DNA from: Patescibacteria group bacterium | Lineage (GTDB): Bacteria; Patescibacteriota; Minisyncoccia; Phycocordibacterales; SIBU01 | Assembly: GCA_040390045.1 (NCBI GenBank) | Contig: JAZJZC010000001.1 | Span: 254,318 to 318,317 of the forward strand | Length of the DNA: 64,000 nt | Direction of reading: 5' to 3' | Shown: positions 1 to 51,781 of the stretch, piece after piece | How positions within the stretch are numbered: position 1 is the first letter of the stretch | Layout: each line of letters begins with the position of its first letter | The notes under the pieces: model-generated | Database searches by the model: none | Told to the model about the DNA's origin: nothing | The model's input: only the letters and a program-made list of their open reading frames with translations | Position numbers and translations under genes: made by a program

Positions 1-1
1 T

Positions 2-54
2 AATTTGGTGAAGTTTGCGTATTAGCAAACCAAGCCAATTTTCACTACGGGATG
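2..54 (+). promoter_or_regulatory. conserved ~53-nt 5' leader motif (copy 1) ending at the fcl start codon
   Basis: AATTTGGTGAAGTTTGCGTATTAGCAAACCAAGCCAATTTTCACTACGGGATG is nearly identical to 6879..6931. Confidence 0.6.
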
Positions 55-981
55 GAAAAAAATTCCAAAATTTATGTTGCTGGACACCGAGGACTGGCGG
101 GGTCGGCAATAGTTCGCAAACTGATTGCTGAAGGCTTTACGAACCTCGTGCTCAAAACGCGATCTGAACTCGACCTTCTCGATCAAAAAGCTGTCGCTCA
201 ATTTTTCGAAAAGGAAAAACCGGAATTTGTTTTTTTGGCAGCCGCGAAAGTCGGCGGCATCATGGCGAATAACACCCACCCCGCAGAATTTATTTATGAA
301 AATTTGGTGGTTCAAACAAATGTCTTGCACGCGGCTCAAAAAAACAACGTGCAAAAATTAGTATTCCTTGGAAGTTCCTGCATCTACCCGCGTCTCGCTC
401 CGCAACCAATCAAAGAAGAATATTTTTTGTCAGGACCTCTGGAGCCAACAAATGAAGCCTACGCCGTGGCGAAAATTGCCGGCATCGTGACTTGCCAAGC
501 CTACCGAACAGAATATGGCTCAAATTTTATTTCAATTATGCCAACCAACCTGTACGGACCAAATGACAATTTCGATCTAGAAAATTCTCATGTCTTGCAA
601 GGATTGATTCGCCGATTCCATGAAGCCAAAGAAAGCGGGGCGCAGACAATTACCCTGTGGGGGACGGGCACCGCGCGACGAGAACTCCTTCAAGTTGATG
701 ATTTTGCCACCGCCGCACTGTTCCTCATGCAAAATTACAACAGCGGAGAGATTATCAACGTAGGCACGGGTACTGACATTTCCATAAAAGAACTTGCTGA
801 AAGCGTGAAAAAAATTGTTGGATTTTCTGGTGAAATTTTGTGGGACACAACGAAACCCGACGGTATGCCAAGAAAACTTCTCGATGTTTCTAAAATTCAC
901 AAACTCGGCTGGAAACATTCCGTTGCCCTCGAGGACGGCATCCATGACACATACGAATGGTATGTCAAAAACGTAAAGTAA
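52..981 (+). CDS. fcl: GDP-L-fucose synthase (GDP-4-keto-6-deoxy-D-mannose 3,5-epimerase/4-reductase)
   Basis: 309 aa; N-terminal KIYVAGHRGLAGSAI Rossmann motif, SSCIYP and YAVAKIAG catalytic region typical of Fcl/WcaG; ATG at 52. Confidence 0.85.
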   Translation: MEKNSKIYVAGHRGLAGSAIVRKLIAEGFTNLVLKTRSELDLLDQKAVAQFFEKEKPEFVFLAAAKVGGIMANNTHPAEFIYENLVVQTNVLHAAQKNNVQKLVFLGSSCIYPRLAPQPIKEEYFLSGPLEPTNEAYAVAKIAGIVTCQAYRTEYGSNFISIMPTNLYGPNDNFDLENSHVLQGLIRRFHEAKESGAQTITLWGTGTARRELLQVDDFATAALFLMQNYNSGEIINVGTGTDISIKELAESVKKIVGFSGEILWDTTKPDGMPRKLLDVSKIHKLGWKHSVALEDGIHDTYEWYVKNVK

Positions 982-997
982 AAAATGAAAAACTAAA

Positions 998-1816
998 ATG
1001 AAGACGTTAATTATTAAACCAAAAAAAACTTTCAGCCTTGAGGACATCAGGGAAGTTTGGCGTTACAAAGAGCTGCTGGTTTTTTTCGTTTGGCGCGATA
1101 TCAAAGTTCGCTACAAACAAACCATTGTCGGCATCGGCTGGGCAATTTTCCAACCGTTTATGACCATGGTTGTGTTTAGCGTTTTCTTCGGCAAACTGAT
1201 TCAAGTGCCTTCGGACGGCATTCCCTATCCAATTTTCGTCTACACTGGACTTTTATTTTGGCAACTATTTGCATCTGCGTTAGGCGATACTTCCAACTCA
1301 CTTATTTCCAACTCAGCCATCATCACCAAAGTATATTTTCCTCGAATAATTTTACCCCTCGCTGATACTGCCAACAAATTCGTGGATTTTTTCTTTGCCA
1401 GTTTGGCTCTCATTTTCTTAATGTTCCACTATGGATATATTCCAGATCTCGCTGGAATTCTTTTGATCCCCGTACTGCTTATAATTACTTCTGCTACGGC
1501 AGTAGGTGCAGGACTGGTGCTCGCGTCAATCAACGTGAAATACCGAGACGTCAGATATATTCTGCCATTTTTTATGCAACTGTTGCTTTTTCTCACACCC
1601 GTTATTTACCCTTCAAGTATCGCTGGAAAATATAGTTGGATCCTTTCGCTCAACCCAATGACAGGCGTGATCAAAGCGGCACGAGCAGGTATTCTCGGCA
1701 CAGGGCCTATTGGGTGGAATTCCCTGGCAATTTCAGCCTTCATGGCAGTGGTATTTTTAAGTATTGGAATTTATTTATTCAAAAAAACTGAACGATATTT
1801 TGCCGATATTGTATAA
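998..1816 (+). CDS. wzm: ABC-2 type polysaccharide/O-antigen export permease (Wzm/TagG-like)
   Basis: 272 aa, about 6 TM segments, typical N-terminal region of ABC-2 permeases; directly upstream of an ABC ATPase. Confidence 0.75.
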   Translation: MKTLIIKPKKTFSLEDIREVWRYKELLVFFVWRDIKVRYKQTIVGIGWAIFQPFMTMVVFSVFFGKLIQVPSDGIPYPIFVYTGLLFWQLFASALGDTSNSLISNSAIITKVYFPRIILPLADTANKFVDFFFASLALIFLMFHYGYIPDLAGILLIPVLLIITSATAVGAGLVLASINVKYRDVRYILPFFMQLLLFLTPVIYPSSIAGKYSWILSLNPMTGVIKAARAGILGTGPIGWNSLAISAFMAVVFLSIGIYLFKKTERYFADIV

Positions 1817-1820
1817 ATGT

Positions 1821-3086
1821 ATGGACCCTATAATTACTATAAAAAATATTGGTAAGCGCTATAACATCACCGGAAGAAAAGGTGGGTATGTTGCCCTGCG
1901 AGATATTTTCTCTGAGTATGTGCGACATCCGTATAGGAGTTTGAAGCACATCGTGAAATACATTCTCGGAAAAAATCGCAATGAAGTTTTTTGGGCACTG
2001 AGAGACATTAATTTCACCGTCGAAAAAGGCGAAGCCATCGGAATCATTGGACCAAACGGCGCCGGCAAATCAACCTTGCTCAAAATTCTCTCGAGAATTA
2101 CTCCGCCAACAGAGGGTGAGATTCGCATTCAAGGTAGAGTCGCATCGCTTCTCGAGGTAGGAACAGGCTTTCATCCGGAACTTTCTGGCCGCGAAAATAT
2201 TTATCTCAACGGCGCCATTTTAGGCATGACTCGAAAAGAAATTGCTGGAAAAATAGATCAGATCATCGAATTTTCCGGAGTGTCACAATTCATTGATACT
2301 CCGGTTAAACGCTATTCATCCGGAATGTACGTTAGGCTAGCCTTCGCCATCGCGGCCCATATTGAACCTGACATTTTAATCGTTGACGAAGTGCTTGCCG
2401 TCGGCGACGCTGAATTCCAAAGGAAATGTCTCGGCAAAATGGATGAAGTGACTCGCGTTGGGCATCGAACAGTAATTTTTGTCAGTCACAATATGGATGC
2501 TATTAGTAGACTCTGTACCAAAACCATCCTTCTCGATAAAGGAAAAATAATTGCCGCCGGAGACACCGATGAAGTCATCGGAAAATATTTGAGCGCCGGA
2601 TACAATTCTGCCACACACCTGCCATTCCCTATTAAAGATCGAGAAGTAAATTTGCATAGCTATTCAGTACAGCAGGATGGAAACGAAACCCTAACCATTG
2701 CGGGCGAGAAACCTTTCAAAGTGCACGTGGATTTTTCAATTGAAAAAATGCTGCGTTCGTTCAGAGCGGGAATCTTCGTAAAAAATATTATGGGCACCGT
2801 CATTACGAGAACTTTTGTGCAAGACTACGCCCGTGAGTTAGAAGAAATCGCTCCGGGAAGATACCGCGCGGCAATTGAAATCCCTCCGGGACTTTTGATG
2901 ACAGGCGAATACCACCTTGAGCTTAAAATTTTCTGCCTTGGTATCACCAATTTCTTTGAAGACGAACACATTGAAAAAAATATCACGGTGTATTCACCAA
3001 AAAATTATAACGAGGTTCGCTCAAAAAATACCGACCTCCGAGGTTACTTTTTAATACCAAGTAAGTGGGAAACAAAAAAGGAGTAA
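1821..3086 (+). CDS. wzt: ABC transporter ATP-binding protein, Wzt/TagH-like, with C-terminal carbohydrate-binding-type extension
   Basis: Walker A GPNGAGKST, signature YSSGMYVRLAFA, Walker B ILIVDE; about 170 aa C-terminal extension; start taken at ATG 1821 (MDPIITIKNIGKRY). Confidence 0.75.
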   Translation: MDPIITIKNIGKRYNITGRKGGYVALRDIFSEYVRHPYRSLKHIVKYILGKNRNEVFWALRDINFTVEKGEAIGIIGPNGAGKSTLLKILSRITPPTEGEIRIQGRVASLLEVGTGFHPELSGRENIYLNGAILGMTRKEIAGKIDQIIEFSGVSQFIDTPVKRYSSGMYVRLAFAIAAHIEPDILIVDEVLAVGDAEFQRKCLGKMDEVTRVGHRTVIFVSHNMDAISRLCTKTILLDKGKIIAAGDTDEVIGKYLSAGYNSATHLPFPIKDREVNLHSYSVQQDGNETLTIAGEKPFKVHVDFSIEKMLRSFRAGIFVKNIMGTVITRTFVQDYARELEEIAPGRYRAAIEIPPGLLMTGEYHLELKIFCLGITNFFEDEHIEKNITVYSPKNYNEVRSKNTDLRGYFLIPSKWETKKE

Positions 3087-3093
3087 CCTCGTC

Positions 3094-4200
3094 ATGACGA
3101 ACGATTCAAAAAAATTAATCCGAGTGAAGGTCTCAACTTCAAGTCCTGCCGTGCCTCACATTAAAACGACACCGGGCTCCAAAGGAGTTGTTGGAAATTT
3201 CCAATTTTTCATCGATCAGGATGTGAAAGACGTCGATTGGTGGGTGGTGGTGGACGGATTTCCACAAAAAGAAACTGCTTCGTGTCCAAGAGAAAATACC
3301 ATTCTCATCACTCAGGAAACCGAAGTGGTCAAAACCTACAGCCAAAAATACATTGATCAATTCCATTGGATAATTACTAGCCAGCAAACTCTCAAACACC
3401 CGAGGCAAATTTTCACCCAACAAGGCCATCAATCCTATCTGTTTCTGAGGCGGCGAGAAGCGGGGCAAAGCCTCGAAAGTTTTCAAGCACAATTTAAAAC
3501 CTACGACGAGCTCCGCGCTCAAACGCCCGCTGACATTCCAAAATCCAAATTGCTCTCAACGGTTATTTCTCAAAAATTACGCACAGAAGGTGCTCAAGCG
3601 CGACACCATTTTGTGATGGAATTACGGAAACACTTCGGTGATCGGTTTGATATTTTCAGTAATAAACTCGCAGACAACAGTCAAAATGTTTTTGGTCCGG
3701 AAGCCAAAACCACGCCCTACAAATGGGATGCGGTTGCGCCATATAAATATTTGCTTTCGATTGAAAACAGTTACGCTCCGAACTGGTGGACCAATCACCT
3801 CTTCGACGGCTTCATCGCTGGCGCCTACCCTATTTTTTACGGCCATCCATCTGTGTTTAATTATTTCCCAAAAAATTCTCTCACCTTAATCGACATCAAT
3901 GATCTTCCCGGATCAATCGCCACCATCGAAAGGGTTTTCTCAGAAAACTATTTTGAGAAATACCAAAAAGAAATTTGGGAGGCACGAAGACTTGTCTTGG
4001 ATAAATATTATCTGTTCGGCATGTTGGCTGAAGAAATAGCAAAACTTCCCGCTGGAAAAAATCCAACACGCATTACTCTTTTCCCCGAGCAGAAACCGTG
4101 GCTGAAGAAAAAAATTGTTGAAACATTGCGCGGAAAAGGAGTGTTATATACCATACCAAGGAAGTTATATAGAATGTATCGAAAAATCCGTTATGATTAA
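3094..4200 (+). CDS. putative fucosyltransferase (GT10-like C-terminal domain)
   Basis: C-terminal KYLLSIENSYAPNWWTNHLFDGFIAGAYPIFYGHPSVFNYFPKNS resembles the GT10 alpha-1,3/4-fucosyltransferase motif (K-F/Y-x-L-S-x-E-N-S ... IPIYWG-x-P); AAAAGGAG RBS before the ATG. Confidence 0.5.
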   Translation: MTNDSKKLIRVKVSTSSPAVPHIKTTPGSKGVVGNFQFFIDQDVKDVDWWVVVDGFPQKETASCPRENTILITQETEVVKTYSQKYIDQFHWIITSQQTLKHPRQIFTQQGHQSYLFLRRREAGQSLESFQAQFKTYDELRAQTPADIPKSKLLSTVISQKLRTEGAQARHHFVMELRKHFGDRFDIFSNKLADNSQNVFGPEAKTTPYKWDAVAPYKYLLSIENSYAPNWWTNHLFDGFIAGAYPIFYGHPSVFNYFPKNSLTLIDINDLPGSIATIERVFSENYFEKYQKEIWEARRLVLDKYYLFGMLAEEIAKLPAGKNPTRITLFPEQKPWLKKKIVETLRGKGVLYTIPRKLYRMYRKIRYD

Positions 4201-4876
4201 AAATAAAAAAATTGTGGCGCTCATACCTTTGCGCGGAGGGTCAAAATCAATCCCGTACAAAAATATAAAAAACTTAGGAGGAAAACCTCTGGCTTTTTGG
4301 GTATGCCAAGCGGCTTTAGAATCAAAATACATTGATGCGGTGTATGTTTCGACTGAGGATGAAAAAATTAAAAAAACTATTGAAAATCTCAAACTTCCTA
4401 TAAAAATTATAGACCGACCGGAAAACCTAGCGACCGATGTTGCAACTGACGAAGCGGTCCTATTGCATGCGATACAGGAAATTAAATGTGACATCTTGAT
4501 TGACCTCCACGCCACTCACCCTTTGACTGACGCATCACATTTGGATTCCGCTCTGGAAAAGTTTGTTAAAGGGGGTTATGATTCGATGCTTACAGGAGTG
4601 CTATTTAAAAACTTCTACTGGACACGAGAAGGTGTGCCGCTCAATTACAATCCCTTGAAAAGACCGATGCGACAACAGTGGGAAGGCACGGTGACCGAAA
4701 ATGGCGCGTTTTACATCACAACTCCAGACACGCTCCGAACGCACGGAAATTTTTTAGGAGGAAAAATAGGCATTTATGAAATGCCGAAGGACATCTACGT
4801 TGATATCGATGAACCGTCGGACTGGGAAAAGGCGGAAAAAATGTTCGCTTTAAAAAAGGTGACCAAAAACGATTAA
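4193..4876 (+). CDS. neuA: acylneuraminate cytidylyltransferase family protein (CMP-nonulosonic acid synthetase)
   Basis: N-terminal KIVALIPLRGGSKSIPYKNIK motif of CMP-NeuAc/CMP-KDO-type cytidylyltransferases; start at ATG 4193 overlapping upstream stop. Confidence 0.7.
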   Translation: MIKNKKIVALIPLRGGSKSIPYKNIKNLGGKPLAFWVCQAALESKYIDAVYVSTEDEKIKKTIENLKLPIKIIDRPENLATDVATDEAVLLHAIQEIKCDILIDLHATHPLTDASHLDSALEKFVKGGYDSMLTGVLFKNFYWTREGVPLNYNPLKRPMRQQWEGTVTENGAFYITTPDTLRTHGNFLGGKIGIYEMPKDIYVDIDEPSDWEKAEKMFALKKVTKND

Positions 4877-4894
4877 AAAATTAGCGCACAAAGC

Positions 4895-6790
4895 ATGAAA
4901 AATAAAACCATAAAAATAGGCGATCGAATAATTGGGGAGAACCAGCCAGCCTTTATTATTGCCGAAGCTGGCATCAACCACAACGGCCATATTGAATTGG
5001 CAAAAAAATTGATTGATCTTGCGGTTACCGCCAGGGCTGACGCCGTAAAATTTCAGATGCGGGATTTTAAAACTCTCTACACCGATAATGCCTGGAACAA
5101 CACGAAACATGAAGATATTGCTTCGCAGTATGTTTTATCGCTCATTCGTGAATCGGAACTCTCTTTTGATAATTTTAAAGAACTTTCTCGATACGCCAAA
5201 TCAAAAGGAATTATATTTCTCTGTACGCCGTTTGACGTCGCGAGCGTTGATGCTTTGGAAAAATTGGGCGTACCTGCGTATAAGGTTTCGAGTGGTGACA
5301 TGGTGAATTTTGAATTACTTGAATATATCGCCAGCAAAAACAAACCGATGCTTCTTTCGACCGGTATGTCCACCTTCGACGAAATAGAAAAAACCGTCAA
5401 ACACTTGGATACTCTTGGCGCCGAATATATTTTGCTTCATTGCAACAGCACCTACCCAACCCCCGGAAAGGATATTAACCTTCGATTTATTCAGATTCTT
5501 AAAGAAAAGTTTGGCGGCATTGTCGGCTATTCCGGACATGAATTGGGAATTGCGGTAAGCACTGCGAGCGTCGCCCTAGGTGCCAAAGTAATCGAGCGCC
5601 ATATTACTCTTGATCACACCATGAAGGGGCCCGACCACGCAGTCAGTCTTGAACCAGCCGGCATCGTCAAACAAGTTCGAGATATTCGCTATCTCGAGTT
5701 GGCCTTACAAGGTGATAAAAAATTCATCACTTCAGGAGAATTCATGAATCGTAAAATTATGGGCAAAAGCCTGGTGGCTAAAGCCGCCATTAAGAAGGGC
5801 GATACGATTACCCGTCAAATGGTAATCGCCAAAAGTCCCGCCAAAGGTCTTTCTCCACAAAAATTGTACGAACTTGTTGGCACCAAAGCCCTTCGGGATA
5901 TTCCGAAGGAAGGTTACTTTACTGAAGAGGATTTAGGCAAAAAAAAGATTGATAGAACTTTTTCCTCAAACAGAAAGTGGGGGCTCATTGTCCGCCCACA
6001 TGACTTTGAAGAGATGATCGAGGGTCTTAAGCCTTCATTTGTAGAGTTCCATTTCAGTTCACATGACTTAAAAAATCCGATTGTCCTCAAAGATCATCCC
6101 GAACTAGAACTGATTGTTCATGCGCCTGAACTCTGGGGAGATGAGCTGCTTGATTTTTCTTCAACTGATCCTGCCACCATTAAACATTCAATTAAATACA
6201 TCAATGACCTCTTGAACACTGTCCGTTCAATGCGTAAACATTTTGGGAAAACTCCTCCAAAAGTAAAAGTGGTGCTTCACCCGGGTGGCATGAGTTTCGA
6301 TCAATTTGTTACAAAAAGTGAGCGCGCAAAAATGTACACCAAGCTCGGTAATGCTTTGAAAAAAATTGATCAAACCGGCATCGAGCTTCTCTTGGAAAAT
6401 CAAGCTCCCCTGCCATGGTATAAAGGCGGATCGTGGTTTTCCAACACCTTCATTGACGCCGATGAAATATTTGAGTTTGCGAAAAAACACGGCTTCAGTC
6501 TCTGTTATGATAGTAGCCATGCGCAGTTGTACTGCTCATTAGCCAAAAAAGATCCGATTGAATACTTCAAAACTCTGAAACCCTTGGTTAAACACGTTCA
6601 CCTCTCTGACGGCATCGGTACTGACGGTGAGGGCATTCAAGTAGAAGAAGGTGATGTGCCGTGGAAATTACTCATGCCGGAAATCCTAAAAACGGATACA
6701 ACAATCGCCCCAGAAATCTGGATGGGACACCGCAACAATGGCGAAGGGTTTATTACAGGACTCAAACGACTGAAAAAATATGGGTTATAA
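4895..6790 (+). CDS. neuB: N-acetylneuraminate synthase family (NeuB/PseI/LegI) fused to a C-terminal sugar-phosphate isomerase/epimerase-like (xylose isomerase-like TIM barrel) domain
   Basis: The N-terminal ~330 aa (FIIAEAGINHNG, then a SAF-like domain GKSLVAKAAIKKGDTI) match NeuB; the C-terminal ~300 aa (HAPELWGDELLDF..., HPGGMS..., LLLENQ..., YDSSHAQLY) look like an AP-endonuclease-2/xylose-isomerase-like TIM barrel. Confidence 0.65.
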   Translation: MKNKTIKIGDRIIGENQPAFIIAEAGINHNGHIELAKKLIDLAVTARADAVKFQMRDFKTLYTDNAWNNTKHEDIASQYVLSLIRESELSFDNFKELSRYAKSKGIIFLCTPFDVASVDALEKLGVPAYKVSSGDMVNFELLEYIASKNKPMLLSTGMSTFDEIEKTVKHLDTLGAEYILLHCNSTYPTPGKDINLRFIQILKEKFGGIVGYSGHELGIAVSTASVALGAKVIERHITLDHTMKGPDHAVSLEPAGIVKQVRDIRYLELALQGDKKFITSGEFMNRKIMGKSLVAKAAIKKGDTITRQMVIAKSPAKGLSPQKLYELVGTKALRDIPKEGYFTEEDLGKKKIDRTFSSNRKWGLIVRPHDFEEMIEGLKPSFVEFHFSSHDLKNPIVLKDHPELELIVHAPELWGDELLDFSSTDPATIKHSIKYINDLLNTVRSMRKHFGKTPPKVKVVLHPGGMSFDQFVTKSERAKMYTKLGNALKKIDQTGIELLLENQAPLPWYKGGSWFSNTFIDADEIFEFAKKHGFSLCYDSSHAQLYCSLAKKDPIEYFKTLKPLVKHVHLSDGIGTDGEGIQVEEGDVPWKLLMPEILKTDTTIAPEIWMGHRNNGEGFITGLKRLKKYGL

Positions 6791-6821
6791 TCCCGTAGTA
6801 GAAATTGGCTTCGCTGTTTGC
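6791..6821 (-). repeat. inverted copy of the leader motif directly after the neuB-fusion stop codon
   Basis: TCCCGTAGTAGAAATTGGCTTCGCTGTTTGC is the reverse complement of GCAAACAG(CGAA)GCCAATTT(C)TACTACGGGA; with copy 2 it forms a ~30-nt inverted repeat around a ~75-nt spacer. Confidence 0.6.
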
Positions 6822-6878
6822 TACAACAAACTTAAAGTATAATATGAGAGTTTCAATTACAAAACTTAGCTTAATCTA

Positions 6879-6931
6879 AATTTGGCGAAGTTCGCTTCAC
6901 AGCAAACAGAGCCAATTTTCACTACGGGATG
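6879..6931 (+). promoter_or_regulatory. conserved leader motif (copy 2) ending at the TylF-like methyltransferase start codon
   Basis: AATTTGGCGAAGTTCGCTTCACAGCAAACAGAGCCAATTTTCACTACGGGATG. Confidence 0.6.
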
Positions 6932-7594
6932 AAAATTTTAAACCAATTTAACAGCGATGACAGTTTTCTGTACGAAAACGGTTTTTATCTCACCGCCAAA
7001 CCAGACCGACTTGGAAAACTTTTGGCGCACTACGAGCTCTACAAAAAAATTGCTGATTTGCCCGGCGCTATCGTTGAGTGCGGCGTATTTAAAGGCGCAT
7101 CACTCATCCGCTTCGCCACATTTCGAAATTTGTTTGAAGCAGAACACTCGAGAAAAATCATCGGCTTTGACATGTTTGGAAAATTTCCAGAAACTAAATT
7201 TAACGAAGATAAAAAATACCGCAAAAAATTTATTGACACTGCAGGCGAAGAAGGAATTACAGAAACTGAGCTTACGCAAGTCTTTGAACTCAAGGATTTG
7301 AAAAATTATGAATTGCTAAAGGGAGATATTAACAAAACGGTTCCTGAATACATAAAAAATAATCCGCACTTGAAAATTGCCCTACTCCACATCGACACCG
7401 ACGTCTACGAACCCGCAGTGACCATCCTCCGTGAAATGTATGACCGCGTCGTCCGCGGCGGCATCATTGCCTTTGATGACTACGGCACCTTCCCTGGCGA
7501 GACCAAGGCCGTCGATGAATTCTTCAAAGACAAAAAAGTTTCGATTAAAAAATTACCTTTTTCTCACATTCCCTCTTTTATCGTAAAACCGTAA
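6929..7594 (+). CDS. TylF/MycF-family sugar O-methyltransferase
   Basis: HIDTDVYEPAVTILREMYDRVVRGGIIAFDDYG matches the macrocin O-methyltransferase family signature; GVFKGAS SAM motif. Confidence 0.7.
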   Translation: MKILNQFNSDDSFLYENGFYLTAKPDRLGKLLAHYELYKKIADLPGAIVECGVFKGASLIRFATFRNLFEAEHSRKIIGFDMFGKFPETKFNEDKKYRKKFIDTAGEEGITETELTQVFELKDLKNYELLKGDINKTVPEYIKNNPHLKIALLHIDTDVYEPAVTILREMYDRVVRGGIIAFDDYGTFPGETKAVDEFFKDKKVSIKKLPFSHIPSFIVKP

Positions 7595-15112: not shown

Positions 15113-15156
15113 AGAAGTCTCAATAGAGTAACACAAGTCTCAAAATTTAGAATAGA

Positions 15157-15195
15157 AAACTGCCCCGATTCGCCTTGCGAATCGGGGCAGTTTTC
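15157..15195. repeat. perfect palindromic hairpin AAAACTGCCCCGATTCGC-CTTG-GCGAATCGGGGCAGTTTT in a divergent intergenic region
   Basis: 18-bp perfect inverted repeat with a 4-nt loop and A/T runs on both sides; the core CCCGATTCGC...GCGAATCGGG is shared with the hairpin at 28796-28838. Confidence 0.7.
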
Positions 15196-28795: not shown

Positions 28796-28838
28796 AAAAG
28801 CCCCCCGATTCGCAAAGCGAATCGGGGGGCTTTTTTTA
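28796..28838. terminator. bidirectional Rho-independent terminator
   Basis: AAAAAGCCCCCCGATTCGC-AAA-GCGAATCGGGGGGCTTTTTTT between convergent genes; shares its core with the hairpin at 15157. Confidence 0.8.
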
Positions 28839-30581
28839 TTTAAGTGGCGCCGGTTTTTCAATAATAAAATCTCCAAGGGCAAGTGCGTCAATTCCTGAAT
28901 CGAAAAAACAGCGGATGGCTTCTCTCGGCGAACAGGCAATCGGCTCTCCCATGATATTCATCGACGTGTTGAGAAGAACCGGTGTGCCTGTAATTTTTCC
29001 AAACTCAGTTATCAATTTCCAATATCGTGGATTATCTTTCTGGGTGACAGTCTGAGGACGCAAAGTGCCGTCAACATGGACCACCGCGGGCAATTCATGT
29101 TTTCTTTCAGGCTTGCAATCGAATGACGTCACCATAAATTTCTCTGCGCGAGGCTTCACCAAATATTTTTCTTTGACCTCGTCTGCCATTGATGGACAAA
29201 ATGGTCGGAACGCTTCGCGAAACTTTACTCGCGCATTGATGATGTCTTTATTCTCAGCTTTCTTCGGACTCATTAAAATCGAACGATTGCCCAAAGCGCG
29301 CGGACCAGATTCCATTCGTCCTTGAAACCAGGCGATGATTTTGTCTTCAGAAAGCATGTGAGCCACCTCGGAACAAACGTCGTTTGATTTGCGATACTGC
29401 AATCGGCGTTCCTTTAAAATTTTCTCAATCTCGTCATTTGAATATTCAGGCCCCCAGTACAAATGATCCGCCACAGGATTTTTCAAATGTCCTCCCTCAC
29501 TTGCCACAAAAAGCGCCGCTCCGAGTGGCAACCCCGCGTCTCCTGGATTTGGATATGGATGATGAGTTTCTACTTTTCCCGACTGCCAAATTCTTTGATT
29601 GAGCTTAACGTTGAGGAAAATTCCACCAGATGTCGCCAAAATTTTGGTGTCCTCTTTGCTAAGCCACGGCAAAACAAATTCCATCGCTTGCTCTTCAAGC
29701 ACCCTCTGGGCTTCAGCGGAAACATCTTCCTTGCCATACTTTTTTACAATTTCGGCAATGCGGAGGGCCTCATCAGAATGCCAGTGAATCGAACCGAGCA
29801 ATTTAAATTCTTTAGTTTCCGGAAAGTTGTACGGCTTCACCAATTCTCCATTTTTAAATTCAGGATAAAAACCATCTAACACTCCGCGAACTTTTGAGAG
29901 GTCACCGTACGGCGCAAGCCCCATAGTTTTTCCCTCGCCATCTCCATGCCACCAGCCGATAGCCTCAGTGACATTGCTGTAAAACCAACCAAGTGAACTT
30001 TTAAAATCATATTTAACGAGCGGATAAATTTTACCATTCTCCCCTCTCCAAATGCACGATGATTTACCGTCACCTGATCCGTCCATGGTGGCGATAACCA
30101 TTTTCCGATTATCATTTGCGGTAAAGTAGGCGCCAGCGGCATGGGCTAAGTGATGTTCAACAAACGTAACCTTGGGAAGTTTTTCAAGAAAAAAATCTCG
30201 GCAGTACAGAGGTGTTCGTAGGCCGGTACTCGGACGATTGCCGAAAAATAAACTGCGGACGATTCGCTTGCCGGAGAGGTAGATTTTTTCTTTCAGATTT
30301 TCTGCCGGTTTTTCGGGAATAGCTACTTTCAAACCAAAAATACATTCGAGCTGATCGCCAACCGCCAATCCCGCGACCGCGATCTCATCGATTTCTCGCG
30401 CAGAAATACCTGCCATTTTTAAACAAAATTTAATTGAGGCGAACGGCAAATCACTTGAATGCTTAACGTGATTAAAACGCTCCTCGGAAACATCGGCTAC
30501 AATCTGACCGTCAACAATAATCGCCGCACCCGCGCCGTGTCCAAAATGGAGTCCCAAAATAGTGTATTTTTTCTTACTCAT
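28836..30581 (-). CDS. carbamoyltransferase, NodU/CmcH (TobZ-like) family
   Basis: N-terminal YTILGLHFGHGAGAAIIVDG and a large YrdC/Kae1-like fold typical of O-carbamoyltransferases; ATG at 30581. Confidence 0.7.
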   Translation of the reverse strand: MSKKKYTILGLHFGHGAGAAIIVDGQIVADVSEERFNHVKHSSDLPFASIKFCLKMAGISAREIDEIAVAGLAVGDQLECIFGLKVAIPEKPAENLKEKIYLSGKRIVRSLFFGNRPSTGLRTPLYCRDFFLEKLPKVTFVEHHLAHAAGAYFTANDNRKMVIATMDGSGDGKSSCIWRGENGKIYPLVKYDFKSSLGWFYSNVTEAIGWWHGDGEGKTMGLAPYGDLSKVRGVLDGFYPEFKNGELVKPYNFPETKEFKLLGSIHWHSDEALRIAEIVKKYGKEDVSAEAQRVLEEQAMEFVLPWLSKEDTKILATSGGIFLNVKLNQRIWQSGKVETHHPYPNPGDAGLPLGAALFVASEGGHLKNPVADHLYWGPEYSNDEIEKILKERRLQYRKSNDVCSEVAHMLSEDKIIAWFQGRMESGPRALGNRSILMSPKKAENKDIINARVKFREAFRPFCPSMADEVKEKYLVKPRAEKFMVTSFDCKPERKHELPAVVHVDGTLRPQTVTQKDNPRYWKLITEFGKITGTPVLLNTSMNIMGEPIACSPREAIRCFFDSGIDALALGDFIIEKPAPLK

Positions 30582-37042: not shown

Positions 37043-37077
37043 TATACTATTTAATTTGTTAAAACCTCTCTTTCTCT

Positions 37078-37103
37078 ATGTAACCTTTCGAGCGAAAGGT
37101 TAT
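37078..37103. repeat. 26-nt palindromic element ATGTAACCTTTCGAGCGAAAGGTTAT (left copy)
   Basis: Perfect internal inverted repeat AACCTTTCG-AGC-CGAAAGGTT; a near-identical copy lies at 37898..37925. Confidence 0.75.
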
Positions 37104-37184
37104 AACTTAAAATTTGACAAAACAATAATTTTCGTGTTATCGTGGCGCGAGTCACTTCGAAAAATTCAACTGAGAAAGGCCAGT

Positions 37185-37808
37185 ATGGCTAGTCTTTGGT
37201 ATGCACTTTTCAGCTGGGATGTACCGACCGCAACCCATCAAGAACTTGCCACTGCCCACGCGATCGTAACGCAAGCTCACGGGAGAATGAGGAACGGAAG
37301 TGCTGGGCCAGGAAATCGAATCATGGCAAATGTCACCCGGCTTCTGCACTACCAATTTCCTCATCTTCCAATTATGCCACAAGAGGATGTGGCGTTGGCC
37401 GATCCCACACTTCCCTATTACACCGTCATTGGTGGATTACGGGACACTCGCTGCTTCATGGCAACCGTCGCCAAGAAACACAACACCACGGACGGCGGAT
37501 CTGCAACCGGTGCCTCGAACATGCAATGGAACACTCACGCCATTGCACGAGCCCAAGCGGAAATCTGCAAGCAAAATGGTTGGACGAGGATCATTGTGGT
37601 TGCGTTTCCGATACATTGGGGACGAGCCGCAGCGGTCTACCGGAAACTGGGGTTGACCCCTCTCATGGCTGAGATGCCTGCAGATCTCGGAGCCTACATG
37701 CATCCATATCTGATTCCCAGCGGCCTGCTTGGAATTCAAACTGTCAGCAAGTTCCGAAAGCGAGAACTGCTCTGCCGAATTCTTTTCTGGCTCAAGAATT
37801 GGATTTGA
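37185..37808 (+). CDS. DUF218/YdcF-like protein (GC-rich island paralog 2)
   Basis: IIVVAFPIHWGRAAAVYRKLG motif; GAAAGG RBS before ATG 37185; strongly GC-rich. Confidence 0.4.
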   Translation: MASLWYALFSWDVPTATHQELATAHAIVTQAHGRMRNGSAGPGNRIMANVTRLLHYQFPHLPIMPQEDVALADPTLPYYTVIGGLRDTRCFMATVAKKHNTTDGGSATGASNMQWNTHAIARAQAEICKQNGWTRIIVVAFPIHWGRAAAVYRKLGLTPLMAEMPADLGAYMHPYLIPSGLLGIQTVSKFRKRELLCRILFWLKNWI

Positions 37809-37897: not shown

Positions 37898-37925
37898 ATG
37901 TAACCTTTCGAGCGAATGGTTACAT
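37898..37925. repeat. 26-28 nt palindromic element ATGTAACCTTTCGAGCGAATGGTTACAT (right copy)
   Basis: Direct repeat of the element at 37078 with one mismatch in the core; the two copies bracket the GC-rich DUF218 gene and its terminator. Confidence 0.75.
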
Positions 37926-38090
37926 AGAGAAATGCGAGATAAAAAACTAAATTTATTTTTTATTTCAAAATAGAATTTTTGCAGTCAGATGCAGTTCGAG
38001 GCGCAAGTGATTTTGCGACTAAAACGTATTCATATACGTGGCAGGAGCAAAATCGTGAAGCAACGAAGAAGGGCGCTGACTGCAAAAGTT

Positions 38091-44350: not shown

Positions 44351-45446
44351 GCTTTTTAAATGACTCAATGTTGGAAATTATTTTAGAAACAAACGATTTT
44401 AAACTGTGATCTCTCTCAACAATCGCCCGCAATTTCAGACCAAGAGAAAATCGCTCTTCCGAACTCATTTTGGCTATACCCAGGATTTTGTCAGATAAAG
44501 CCTTAAAATCAGCCTTTGGATACATTAAATCGCCTACAAATGGCCCTAAAACGTCCTTAAATGCCTCATTACAGGTCAAAATGGGCAATCCCACAGCCAT
44601 AGCCTCCGGGACGACTTTATCGAGGCTGCCGGTATGTCCCATGTTAACGAAAAGATCATACTCGGAAAGCTTATATGGAAGGTCCACATTAGCAACTGCA
44701 CCCTTAAAATTGATGACGCCCGACAAATCCTTTTTAGCAACTTTTTCCTTTAGACGAGCTAAATATGCCTCGTCCAAAAAGGTTAATCTCGGTCCTATGA
44801 TGTCAACCGTAATTGGCGTAGAAATTTCTTGACGGACCTTTTCAATCGCCTCAATCAACGTATCGTAATCTTTCGATGGTGTGATTCTTCCTACTGTTAC
44901 AATCCGAAGTTCCTTTTGGTTTGTGTTCTGTGGTCTGTGTTCCGTGTTAAATTTCCCCGTGTCGATTCCCTGTCCGATCACCTTTACTTTTTTGCTTTTT
45001 AATCTGAACCCGCTCGTAGTCGATGTAAAAACAATATCCGTAAAAAACAAAGCCACTTTCAAATGCCAGGGCGTGCTTTTATGGGCGTACCAAAGCGTCA
45101 CAGTTTTACCAAAAAGTTTCCAAAAAATTCCTCCGAGAACAATGTATTCTGGATTCATGTGGACGAACACTGCGTCGTATTCATTTCTATTTTGTACGAT
45201 ATATCGTACAAAGCGCCACGAATACAGAAGTCGAGAAAAAGTTTTTAGTTTGTAGTTTGTAATTTTTAGCTTTTCTTTTCCCAAAGAAAAAACCTTTACA
45301 TTGTTCGGCAAATTAACTTCGCCTTTTTCAAGACAAATCGCCACCACGCTTTCTGCCTGTTTAGAAAACTCCGCAATCCAACCATGCATAAACCCGAGCA
45401 CCGCGTCTCGCTCATCAATTTTTTGGGTAACAATTAAAATCCGCAT
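44343..45446 (-). CDS. GT4 family glycosyltransferase
   Basis: GT-B with a C-terminal EAMAVGLPILT region; contains a 20-nt palindrome and a GTGGTCTGTGTTCCGTG repeat shared with 50606..51781. Confidence 0.65.
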   Translation of the reverse strand: MRILIVTQKIDERDAVLGFMHGWIAEFSKQAESVVAICLEKGEVNLPNNVKVFSLGKEKLKITNYKLKTFSRLLYSWRFVRYIVQNRNEYDAVFVHMNPEYIVLGGIFWKLFGKTVTLWYAHKSTPWHLKVALFFTDIVFTSTTSGFRLKSKKVKVIGQGIDTGKFNTEHRPQNTNQKELRIVTVGRITPSKDYDTLIEAIEKVRQEISTPITVDIIGPRLTFLDEAYLARLKEKVAKKDLSGVINFKGAVANVDLPYKLSEYDLFVNMGHTGSLDKVVPEAMAVGLPILTCNEAFKDVLGPFVGDLMYPKADFKALSDKILGIAKMSSEERFSLGLKLRAIVERDHSLKSFVSKIISNIESFKKHE

Positions 45447-50605: not shown

Positions 50606-51781
50606 TTAGTTCGATTGGTACGCCCCCTCAATTGAATTTTTGTACTCATGTAAATACTGTTCTTTAGTTTTTGCCAATTCGTCCACCGCGTGCGGTGCAA
50701 TTTGCAAAGCATAAAAAGTTCTCAACTGATTATCTTCTATGAGTTGCGAAATGGTGGAAACAAAACAATTCAAATCATTAACAGGACAATCAAATGAGTG
50801 ACCTTTGTGATTAAGTAGTTCCGGTGCGATGCCCACATCAGATGAAACGGCAGGACAACCACTTGCCACTGCTTCAAAAAGCGCTAACCCAAAACCTTCA
50901 TACAAAGAAGTTTGAAGATACAAATTGGCAGTTTTGTAATAGGAAATCGTGTCATGTTGCCAACCTTCAAAAACCACATTTTTAGAAAGCTGTAAGCTGT
51001 TAGCTTGTAGCTGTAAGCTTCTTTTCAGTGGTCCATCACCAACAATCACCAGTCCCGTCGTTGGATATTTTTTAACCAACTTTTTTAAAATTCGCAGAGC
51101 AAACTGAACATTTTTTTCATACGTTAACCGAGCCACTACCAAAATAATAAAACCGAAATGGGAATACTTTTGCTGGAGACTGAAACTTGGTTCGGCGCTT
51201 CGAAGTTTTTCAACGTCCGTAAAAATCGGCAGTATCTTAGTTCGTAATTCGAAATTCCTAATTCGTAATTCTTTCAAAGAATTGAAAATTCTTTGACTAA
51301 CAACACGAATGGCATTCGCTTTGGGCAACACGCGCCTTGCAATTAAAACACGCACCCTATTGAGAAAAGAGGCTCTTTTAAAATACGGATTAAGAAAATC
51401 AGTGTGAATTTGAATGTGCAGTGGCAACTTGAACCGCGTGGCAATTTTCATCGCCACGTAACCGGTTTCAAAAGGATCCTGCCCTGTAATAACGGAATTA
51501 GGAATTAGGAATTTCGAATTACGAATAATACGCTTCCCAATCCAAATGGCGTCAAAAATATAAAACCATCGATTCCAAGAATTTGTACGATATATCGTAC
51601 AATTAGGAGCGATCTGTATCTTATGCTCCGTGGTCTGTGTTCCGTGGTCTGTTCTCCTCGTCGAGAATACAACGATGTGAAGTTCCTCAAAAAGCCCCGC
51701 ATATTCAACCATCCGCGCGCGAACTGCGCTTCCCTCTTCAAATATTTTCCGATCACTGCTTATTGATAAAACCTTGGTCAT
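50606..51781 (-). CDS. GT4 family glycosyltransferase
   Basis: C-terminal VIVGDGPLKRSLQLQANSLQLSKNVVFEG and YLQTSLYEGFGLALFEAVASGCP (E-x7-E region). Confidence 0.65.
   Translation of the reverse strand: MTKVLSISSDRKIFEEGSAVRARMVEYAGLFEELHIVVFSTRRTDHGTQTTEHKIQIAPNCTIYRTNSWNRWFYIFDAIWIGKRIIRNSKFLIPNSVITGQDPFETGYVAMKIATRFKLPLHIQIHTDFLNPYFKRASFLNRVRVLIARRVLPKANAIRVVSQRIFNSLKELRIRNFELRTKILPIFTDVEKLRSAEPSFSLQQKYSHFGFIILVVARLTYEKNVQFALRILKKLVKKYPTTGLVIVGDGPLKRSLQLQANSLQLSKNVVFEGWQHDTISYYKTANLYLQTSLYEGFGLALFEAVASGCPAVSSDVGIAPELLNHKGHSFDCPVNDLNCFVSTISQLIEDNQLRTFYALQIAPHAVDELAKTKEQYLHEYKNSIEGAYQSN

Follow-up and report, generated by a model that had tools for sequence, protein, structure and literature searches.

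Start-codon-adjoining repeats in a Patescibacteria glycan island are probably parts of a MITE-like transposable element

Why should two genes of one glycan-biosynthesis island be preceded by nearly the same sequence, up to and including their start codons? The genes in question are fcl, which encodes a GDP-fucose synthase type epimerase, and a gene beginning at position 6929 that encodes a TylF-family methyltransferase (TylF-like gene); both lie in a 64,000-nt stretch of the genome of a Patescibacteria group bacterium, which we analysed as a whole and refer to as the window. A preliminary description of this DNA had noted a leader of about 53 nt at 2–54 and again at 6879–6931, together with an inverted third copy at 6791–6821, and had offered several explanations for them, ranging from a shared regulatory signal to the inverted termini of a miniature inverted-repeat element. 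Our analysis favors the last of these: the 53-nt "leader" is, with good probability, the right terminal part of a non-autonomous transposon of Patescibacteria (candidate phyla radiation, CPR) that resembles the MITEs (miniature transposable elements with inverted repeats) of other bacteria.

The three copies are real. The two forward copies (repeat family D4) are 84% identical over 57 nt and end in the ATG of fcl (52) and in the ATG of the TylF-like gene (6929), respectively. They share the 21-mer GCCAATTTTCACTACGGGATG exactly, at 34–54 and 6911–6931, and this 21-mer recurs on the minus strand at 6789–6809 with three mismatches; 100 shuffles gave an expectation of zero matches by chance. The first base of the inverted copy lies one past the TAA stop codon (6788–6790) of a gene encoding a 631-aa NeuB fusion protein, and the copy is full-length yet more diverged, running from 6791 to about 6841 and not merely to 6821. 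The stem of about 30 bp that had been proposed to form between the second and third copies is borne out by RNA folding of 6780–6940, in which 6790–6822 is paired with 6900–6931 around a loop of about 77 nt (−48.6 kcal/mol, z = −6.7, with none of 200 shuffles as stable); folded as DNA, the same region gives z = −7.5. Neither a fuzzy search nor an nhmmer profile detected further copies in the window.

Comparison with related clusters indicates that the sequence between the NeuB-fusion gene and the TylF-like gene has been inserted there. The nearest homologues of the TylF-like protein carry the annotation Patescibacteria group or Candidatus Paceibacterota, those of the NeuB fusion the annotation Candidatus Taylorbacteria. 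In L020/21, L022/23 and L024/25, whose TylF proteins are 88, 86 and 79% identical to that of the window, only 0–1 nt separates the neuB stop codon from the TylF ATG, and the empty junctions read …aaaaatag/ATGAAAATT and …aaaataaa/ATGAAAATT; in L029 (88% identical) the neuB and TylF genes overlap. Relatives of the NeuB fusion likewise lack the arms of the element, with 9 nt to the next gene in P0122 and 57 nt in L026/27. Because the neuB–TylF junction is empty in four related clusters, the 139 nt at 6791–6929 can be recognized as an insertion. The sequence before fcl is likewise lineage-specific: only 6–30 nt lie between gmd and fcl in L020 and L022, and the motif is absent. Fuzzy and nhmmer searches of about 110 kb of non-redundant sequence from the glycan loci of relatives found no copy of the element. 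In these relatives, gmd through the genes past TylF form a single co-directional, tightly packed array, so that the "two operons" of the preliminary description are an effect of the element having inserted into one gene array.

The same junction carries a different insert of about 184 nt in L028 (1469–1652; TylF 87% identical), a word-like low-complexity sequence with long inverted arms, CAAGTGTGAAAGTAAGAAAGTTTAGAAAGT and ACTTTCTAAACTTTCTTACTTTCACACTT, which implies that the junction has been struck independently by another palindromic element. The NeuB fusion itself (window 4895–6790) joins NeuB and a SAF domain to a xylose-isomerase-like TIM barrel (AP_endonuc_2) and is kept in many lineages, Patescibacteria and other uncultured ones, at about 50–84% identity; in the closest relatives with a TylF gene, NeuB is a plain protein of 293–311 aa and not the fusion.

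Between the stop codon of the NeuB-fusion gene and the start codon of the TylF-like gene, the window holds one complete element (6791–6929, plus strand; copy 2), which runs from TCCCG to CGGGA. Its left inverted repeat, the B arm (TCCCGTAGTAGAAATTGGCTTCGCTGTTTGC, 6791–6821, minus strand, the inverted third copy), contains a core, TTTCTACTACGGG, that partners an A-type arm in every element; its right inverted repeat, the A arm (GCAAACAGAGCCAATTTTCACTACGGGA, 6902–6929, plus strand), ends in an A that is also the A of the TylF-like ATG. The two arms are 85% complementary over 26 nt (both from repeat analysis I20). The interior (6822–6901, assigned to no strand) contains a TATAAT box at 6838–6843 on the plus strand, a TATACT-like box on the minus strand, a conserved block, GAGTTTCAATTACAAAACTTAGCTTAAT, and the 5′ half of a hairpin on the A side (6882–6895). 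Over its full length copy 2 aligns with the elements of four metagenome loci (L008, L010, L013 and L015).

The sequence before fcl (copy 1; 1–52, plus strand) comprises only the right-hand 52 nt or so of an element and is cut off by the start of the window. It includes a subterminal hairpin, TTGGT..GCCAA (5–38), and an A arm (GCAAACCAAGCCAATTTTCACTACGGGA, 25–52) whose last A doubles as the first base of the fcl start codon (ATG, 52–54). Copy 1 matches 6879–6935 at 84% identity, nhmmer aligns profile positions 101–157 to window 2–58 (E = 5.7e-10), and the similarity reaches the first base of the window. Copy 1 represents a second element of which the window retains only the right end; the window start that cuts it is probably a contig end, produced by the repeat. 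The only short-read contig with the exact NeuB fusion (Logan, L019) spans window 25–6818 and so ends inside both arms, as expected for repeats. The Gmd protein of this genome (P0245) is annotated as 3′-partial on the same 323,682-nt contig of the metagenome-assembled genome (MAG) as the NeuB fusion, and gmd directly precedes fcl in relatives. The partial Gmd suggests that the contig, and hence the window, starts inside copy 1; both contig ends probably stop in this copy, and the contig may close on itself.

To what extent does the element occur elsewhere? A scan of one genome per species with the pattern GCCAATTTYYACTACGGGAT returned seven loci, three of them real, namely the unclassified MAG ELA362 (L002) and two Candidatus Saccharibacteria MAGs (L004 and L005). 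A scan of metagenomes returned 11 loci, of which six are real: L008, L010 and L016 (the latter two on one contig), L013, and L015, which is the same as L018; some of the sampled copies come from groundwater/JGI metagenome contigs. We set aside the other nine of the 18 matches (L001, L003, L006, L007, L009, L011, L012, L014 and L017), four from the genome scan and five from the metagenome scan, as chance matches inside coding sequences of other, mostly high-GC genomes; eight of them, all four from the genome scan (each in a high-GC genome) and four from the metagenome scan, read A-N-F-Y-Y-G-I. The arm pattern had no match in viral contigs, and plasmid and phage collections gave only a few partial matches below significance (E ≥ 0.1), which covered no more than 35% of the element and did not include the arms.

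All real loci contain an inverted pair of an A arm, …GCCAATTTTCACTACGGGA, and a B arm, …GCCAATTTCTACTACGGGA, with about 30–105 nt between them. The two arm types, …TTTTCACTACGGGA and …TTTCTACTACGGGA, differ consistently at two adjacent positions (arm sequences TCCCGTAGTRRAAATTGGC and GCCAATTTYYACTACGGGA). Between TCCCG and CGGGA the element measures 68–147 bp, usually about 139 bp, and has no conserved open reading frame (ORF); imperfect terminal inverted repeats of about 21–31 nt are present in every copy, and the interior is AT-rich and variable. The window-like contigs have the whole unit of about 139 nt in common, including an interior block, GAGTTCGAATTACAAAGCTTAGTTTAAT, and the TATAAT box (alignment A1), the box being found in the interiors of three of the five window-like copies. 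In the Saccharibacteria and ELA362 copies only the arms resemble these, and the interiors are unrelated, and the interior of L016 is also unrelated to the window-like one. At the orthologous site represented by L013 and L016, the arms are 96% and 84% identical and the interior 46%, with flanking genes at 72–79% and flanking intergenic DNA at 58%. The arms are nearly identical between Saccharibacteria and Paceibacterota-like contigs. Outside the window, the genes that adjoin the element encode a YqeY-like protein, a membrane permease, a peptidase-like membrane protein opposite CorA, a nucleotidyltransferase and hypothetical proteins, and the wider neighborhoods include ribosomal proteins L27 and L9, Obg, CysS and DNA polymerase I. 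The element is not tied to glycan genes; elsewhere its neighbors are unrelated, mostly housekeeping genes. Two copies are present in the window, and two on the 27.7-kb contig OBEQ013055075.1.

With the element boundaries set at TCCCG…CGGGA, exact direct repeats of 3–5 nt flank seven of the eight complete independent copies: TGAA in L002 and in L013 (= L016), TGGA in L005, TGCAA in L010, TGG in L008, ATGA in L015 (= L018) and TGT in L004. A direct repeat of at least 3 nt is expected at 2.5% of random sites. At each of the nine independent sites the left repeat follows directly on the A of an ATG, and on the gene side the element's last A and the duplicated TG recreate an ATG at the element edge. 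An ATG thus adjoins an arm at every site (9/9), with the A arm toward the gene in eight of nine. The recreated ATG is the true start of the downstream gene: fcl and TylF start at the same residues in relatives, and the products at L010 and L004 begin like their families; for L002, L005, L008 and L015 the support consists only of the downstream ORF running on from that ATG. The search pattern fixed only the T after CGGGA, and on one arm only; in L013, L016 and L015 the gene-side flank was unconstrained by the pattern and is still a start codon.

Other ways of reading the boundaries were rejected. A duplication of the dinucleotide AT would need a pre-existing tandem ATGx-ATGx at every empty site, and boundaries at CCCG…CGGG give repeats of 5–7 nt with inner mismatches where TCCCG…CGGGA gives exact ones. 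A small ORF (MNPVVEIG…) from the left duplicated ATG is explained by the duplication, and its frame is not kept between copies. In L015 (= L018), a remnant arm end, aaatttCTAACGGGA (CTAACGGGA), at 3745–3773 immediately precedes the left direct repeat that flanks the full element, which indicates that this start codon was hit by insertion more than once.

The suggestion that the copies represent the inverted termini of a miniature element has thus gained from the empty sites, the direct repeats, the copies scattered beside unrelated genes in other genomes, and the conserved arms around a variable interior. Several of the features by which MITEs are recognized are present, namely small size without coding capacity, terminal inverted repeats, a target-site duplication (here of varying length), and presence/absence among relatives, with four related clusters empty at neuB–TylF and two at gmd–fcl. 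No transposase or recombinase is found among the genes of the window, and since the window encodes only glycan enzymes, the element is non-autonomous. Insertion duplicated 3–5 nt of the target, starting within a start codon, and the terminal A of the element together with the duplicated TG… rebuilt the ATG at the element edge, leaving the downstream gene intact; a DDE-type transposase acting in trans would have recognized the arms. The downstream gene would then be expressed by read-through or from a weak promoter inside the element, for which the TATAAT box is a candidate. In a read-through transcript the arms would form an RNA stem of about 30 bp whose foot includes the AUG, implying either a cost to translation or transcription that starts inside the element. 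The similarity upstream of fcl and TylF would accordingly exist because one repeat family inserted twice, not through a shared regulatory design.

Several observations weigh against interpreting the repeat as a simple MITE-like transposon. No autonomous insertion sequence (IS) with these ends, and no transposase, was found in the window or the loci examined, and the copy number looks low, at two in 64 kb, two in the 27.7-kb contig and none in the relatives' loci. The length of the direct repeat varies (3–5 nt, or 5–7 nt with the CCCG boundary), the sample consists of nine independent sites, and the pattern fixed the first flanking T on one arm. Copy 1 is seen by its right half only, the left half lying outside the window. 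The pair flanking copy 2 is imperfect, TAA (6788–6790) against TGA (6930–6932), making this the only copy without an exact repeat. We infer that the TAA stop codon of the NeuB-fusion gene (plus strand) represents the left member of the target-site duplication; one change from G to A would explain the difference, and the TAA still stops this gene. The right copy, TGA (plus strand), completes the rebuilt ATG at 6929–6931, and in the reconstructed empty site, …GGGTTATGAAAATT…, stop and start codons would overlap in the standard ATGA form. The C-terminus of the NeuB fusion (...KKYGL*) is kept in relatives. Relatives begin the TylF-like protein at the identical ATGAAAATTTTA..., directly past the neuB stop. 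A further difficulty is that the arms at the L013/L016 site are better kept than the neighboring genes and that arms are nearly identical between Saccharibacteria and Paceibacterota-like contigs; selfish mobility by itself would not account for this, and selection or gene conversion is indicated. Arm conservation and the bias in A-arm orientation together suggest that the element has some role for the host or that its copies undergo gene conversion. We put forward tentatively a bolder form of the transposon interpretation: a previously undescribed CPR transposon family would target start codons specifically, entering the ATG one base in, regenerating it with the terminal A and the duplicated TG…, and so replacing the whole upstream region. 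Its arms, nearly identical from Saccharibacteria to Paceibacterota, would be kept because they bring along a promoter or a context for translation initiation, in genomes largely without Shine-Dalgarno sequences.

Of the alternatives, the one that survives best, though we regard it as doubtful, is compatible with a mobile origin: the element may have been domesticated as an expression module, with the arms and subterminal hairpin serving as a portable promoter, 5′ untranslated region or translation-initiation context. Such a role would explain why the arms are kept at start codons and are so strongly conserved. It fits the ATG that adjoins an arm at all nine sites, the A arm facing the gene at eight of them, the arms that outlast flanking genes at L013/L016, the TATAAT box in three of five window-like interiors, and the scarcity of Shine-Dalgarno sequences among the genes of the window, where the context near the AUG may matter. 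However, a consensus scan of 6600–7100 called no sigma-70 promoter in the element (the TATAAT at 6838–6843 is perfect, but it lacks an acceptable −35), the interiors of different lineages show no relation, the same genes are expressed in relatives that lack the element, and read-through transcripts would bury the AUG at the foot of the 30-bp stem. Candidate sigma-54, ECF, sigma-B, Bacteroidetes-type (TAnnTTTG) and leaderless promoters picked by eye, and a CsrA-site reading of CACUACGGGAUG, were dropped because spacing and conservation were inconsistent across copies.

The architecture of the arms raises the possibility, which we consider improbable, that the element is a repetitive extragenic palindromic (REP)-type repeat mobilized by a REP-associated tyrosine (RAYT; Y1) transposase. 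Each arm has a GTAG followed by an imperfect palindrome (CCCGTAGTGAAAATTGGC…GCCAA), and the two arm subtypes stand in inverted pairs around a linker, much as the two subtypes of unit, Y and Z, do in bacterial interspersed mosaic elements (BIMEs). Single-strand Y1 transposition is not, however, expected to leave direct repeats, and the GTAG lies 6 nt from the palindrome and not next to it; copies are sparse, and neither the window nor the loci examined showed a RAYT gene.

Very little now speaks for the possibility, prominent in the preliminary description, that the motif is a regulator-binding site or RNA leader coordinating the fucose and nonulosonic-acid modules. Two copies do lie directly upstream of glycan genes in one cluster, but the same junctions lack the motif in four related clusters, elsewhere it stands beside housekeeping and unrelated genes with no link to glycans, direct repeats flank it, and it has neither an Rfam match nor covariation. 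We are similarly skeptical that the sequence between neuB and TylF acts as a structured non-coding RNA or as a signal for RNA processing or attenuation. The hairpin is very stable, as its z-score attests, and repeats of the Correia and ERIC type are processed in mRNAs; such stability nevertheless follows trivially from terminal inverted repeats, and the attenuator or terminator proposed earlier lacks a U tract, a terminator call (6600–7100) and helix covariation. The covariation check that had been suggested showed the local hairpin to be no better than shuffles or controls. Rfam returned no match for the whole window at the gathering score and nothing meaningful for 6700–7000 at E ≤ 10, where the only hits, the best of them at 35 bits against a 140-bit cut-off, were to plant hairpin precursors. 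Least plausible of all is an inverton that phase-varies the downstream glycan genes, since, although inverted repeats do flank a segment of about 80 nt with a TATAAT/TATACT box upstream of surface-glycan genes, every window-like copy has the same orientation (including one locus in two metagenomes, L015/L018, and in two species, L013/L016), the 64 kb contain no recombinase, the direct repeats and empty sites point to insertion, and most copies are beside housekeeping genes.

The window as a whole is one glycan-biosynthesis island, most of whose genes lack a Shine-Dalgarno sequence; it encodes epimerases, aminotransferases, C- and O-methyltransferases, many glycosyltransferases (GT1/GT2/GT10/GT11), a carbamoyltransferase, PMT_2 and a Wzm/Wzt exporter. 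It contains other repeats. A 31-nt inverted repeat of TTCGTAATTCGAAATTCCTAATTC-type words (51241–51271 and 51495–51525, 97% complementary) lies inside the frame of a GT1-family glycosyltransferase gene (50606–51781, minus strand), and two glycosyltransferase genes contain related GTGGTCTGTGTTCCGTG words, at 44921–44946 and 51621–51660; repeats may have inserted in frame here. The hairpin TAACCTTTCGAGCGAAAGGTTA occurs twice, at 37071–37102 and 37901–37932 (91% complementary as a pair), bracketing a 250-aa ORF (37056–37808) without a Pfam match. Two terminator-like hairpins, at 15147–15194 and 28796–28843, have the core CCCCGATTCGC…GCGAATCGGGG in common and may be a reused terminator.

Taken together, our findings remove a false lead, in that no regulator shared by the fucose and nonulosonic-acid modules is needed, and account for the breaks that assemblies of this genome show here, the element being a repeat. 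The tiny genomes of Patescibacteria are usually considered poor in mobile DNA, and we found no description of this repeat family in the literature on MITEs or repeats of Patescibacteria or Saccharibacteria; the family appears to be undescribed, within a known kind of element, the bacterial MITEs. Should the association with start codons hold, this would be an unusual transposon that swaps the upstream region of a gene while rebuilding its ATG, and would offer a handle on transcription and translation start in these uncultured bacteria. Insertion at start codons with restoration of the ATG, by arms nearly identical across distant CPR lineages, could, if confirmed, make the family more than another MITE.

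How does the element compare with known systems? Like the JUMPStart/ops leaders, which depend on RfaH, it is a short conserved sequence just upstream of polysaccharide genes; unlike them, its copies lack the ops core GGCGGTAG (direct reading of 1–54 and 6879–6931 likewise revealed no ops element, GGCGGTAGnnT), and the motif is neither kept at orthologous clusters nor restricted to glycan genes. It shares with invertons, such as those of Bacteroides capsule loci and fimS of Escherichia coli, inverted repeats around a short promoter-like segment upstream of surface-glycan genes, but differs in its single orientation, in having no recombinase nearby and in having sites that are empty in relatives. 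With REP and BIME sequences it has in common GTAG, an imperfect palindrome and units of two subtypes that flank a linker as inverted pairs, and it departs from RAYT-associated repeats in its flanking direct repeats, its low copy number and the lack of a RAYT gene in the sequences examined. The likeness is greatest to Correia elements of Neisseria, pneumococcal RUP and enterobacterial ERIC/IRU, which are also non-coding sequences of 70–150 bp with terminal inverted repeats and a variable interior, are flanked by short direct repeats, lie in intergenic DNA, are present or absent among relatives, would fold into one long hairpin in a transcript and may supply promoter-like boxes. To these the Patescibacteria element has no sequence similarity (plasmid and phage collections, Rfam), its hosts are Patescibacteria and no parent IS is known; its duplication is not TA but covers 3–5 nt starting in a start codon, with every sampled copy adjoining an ATG rebuilt with the element's last base.

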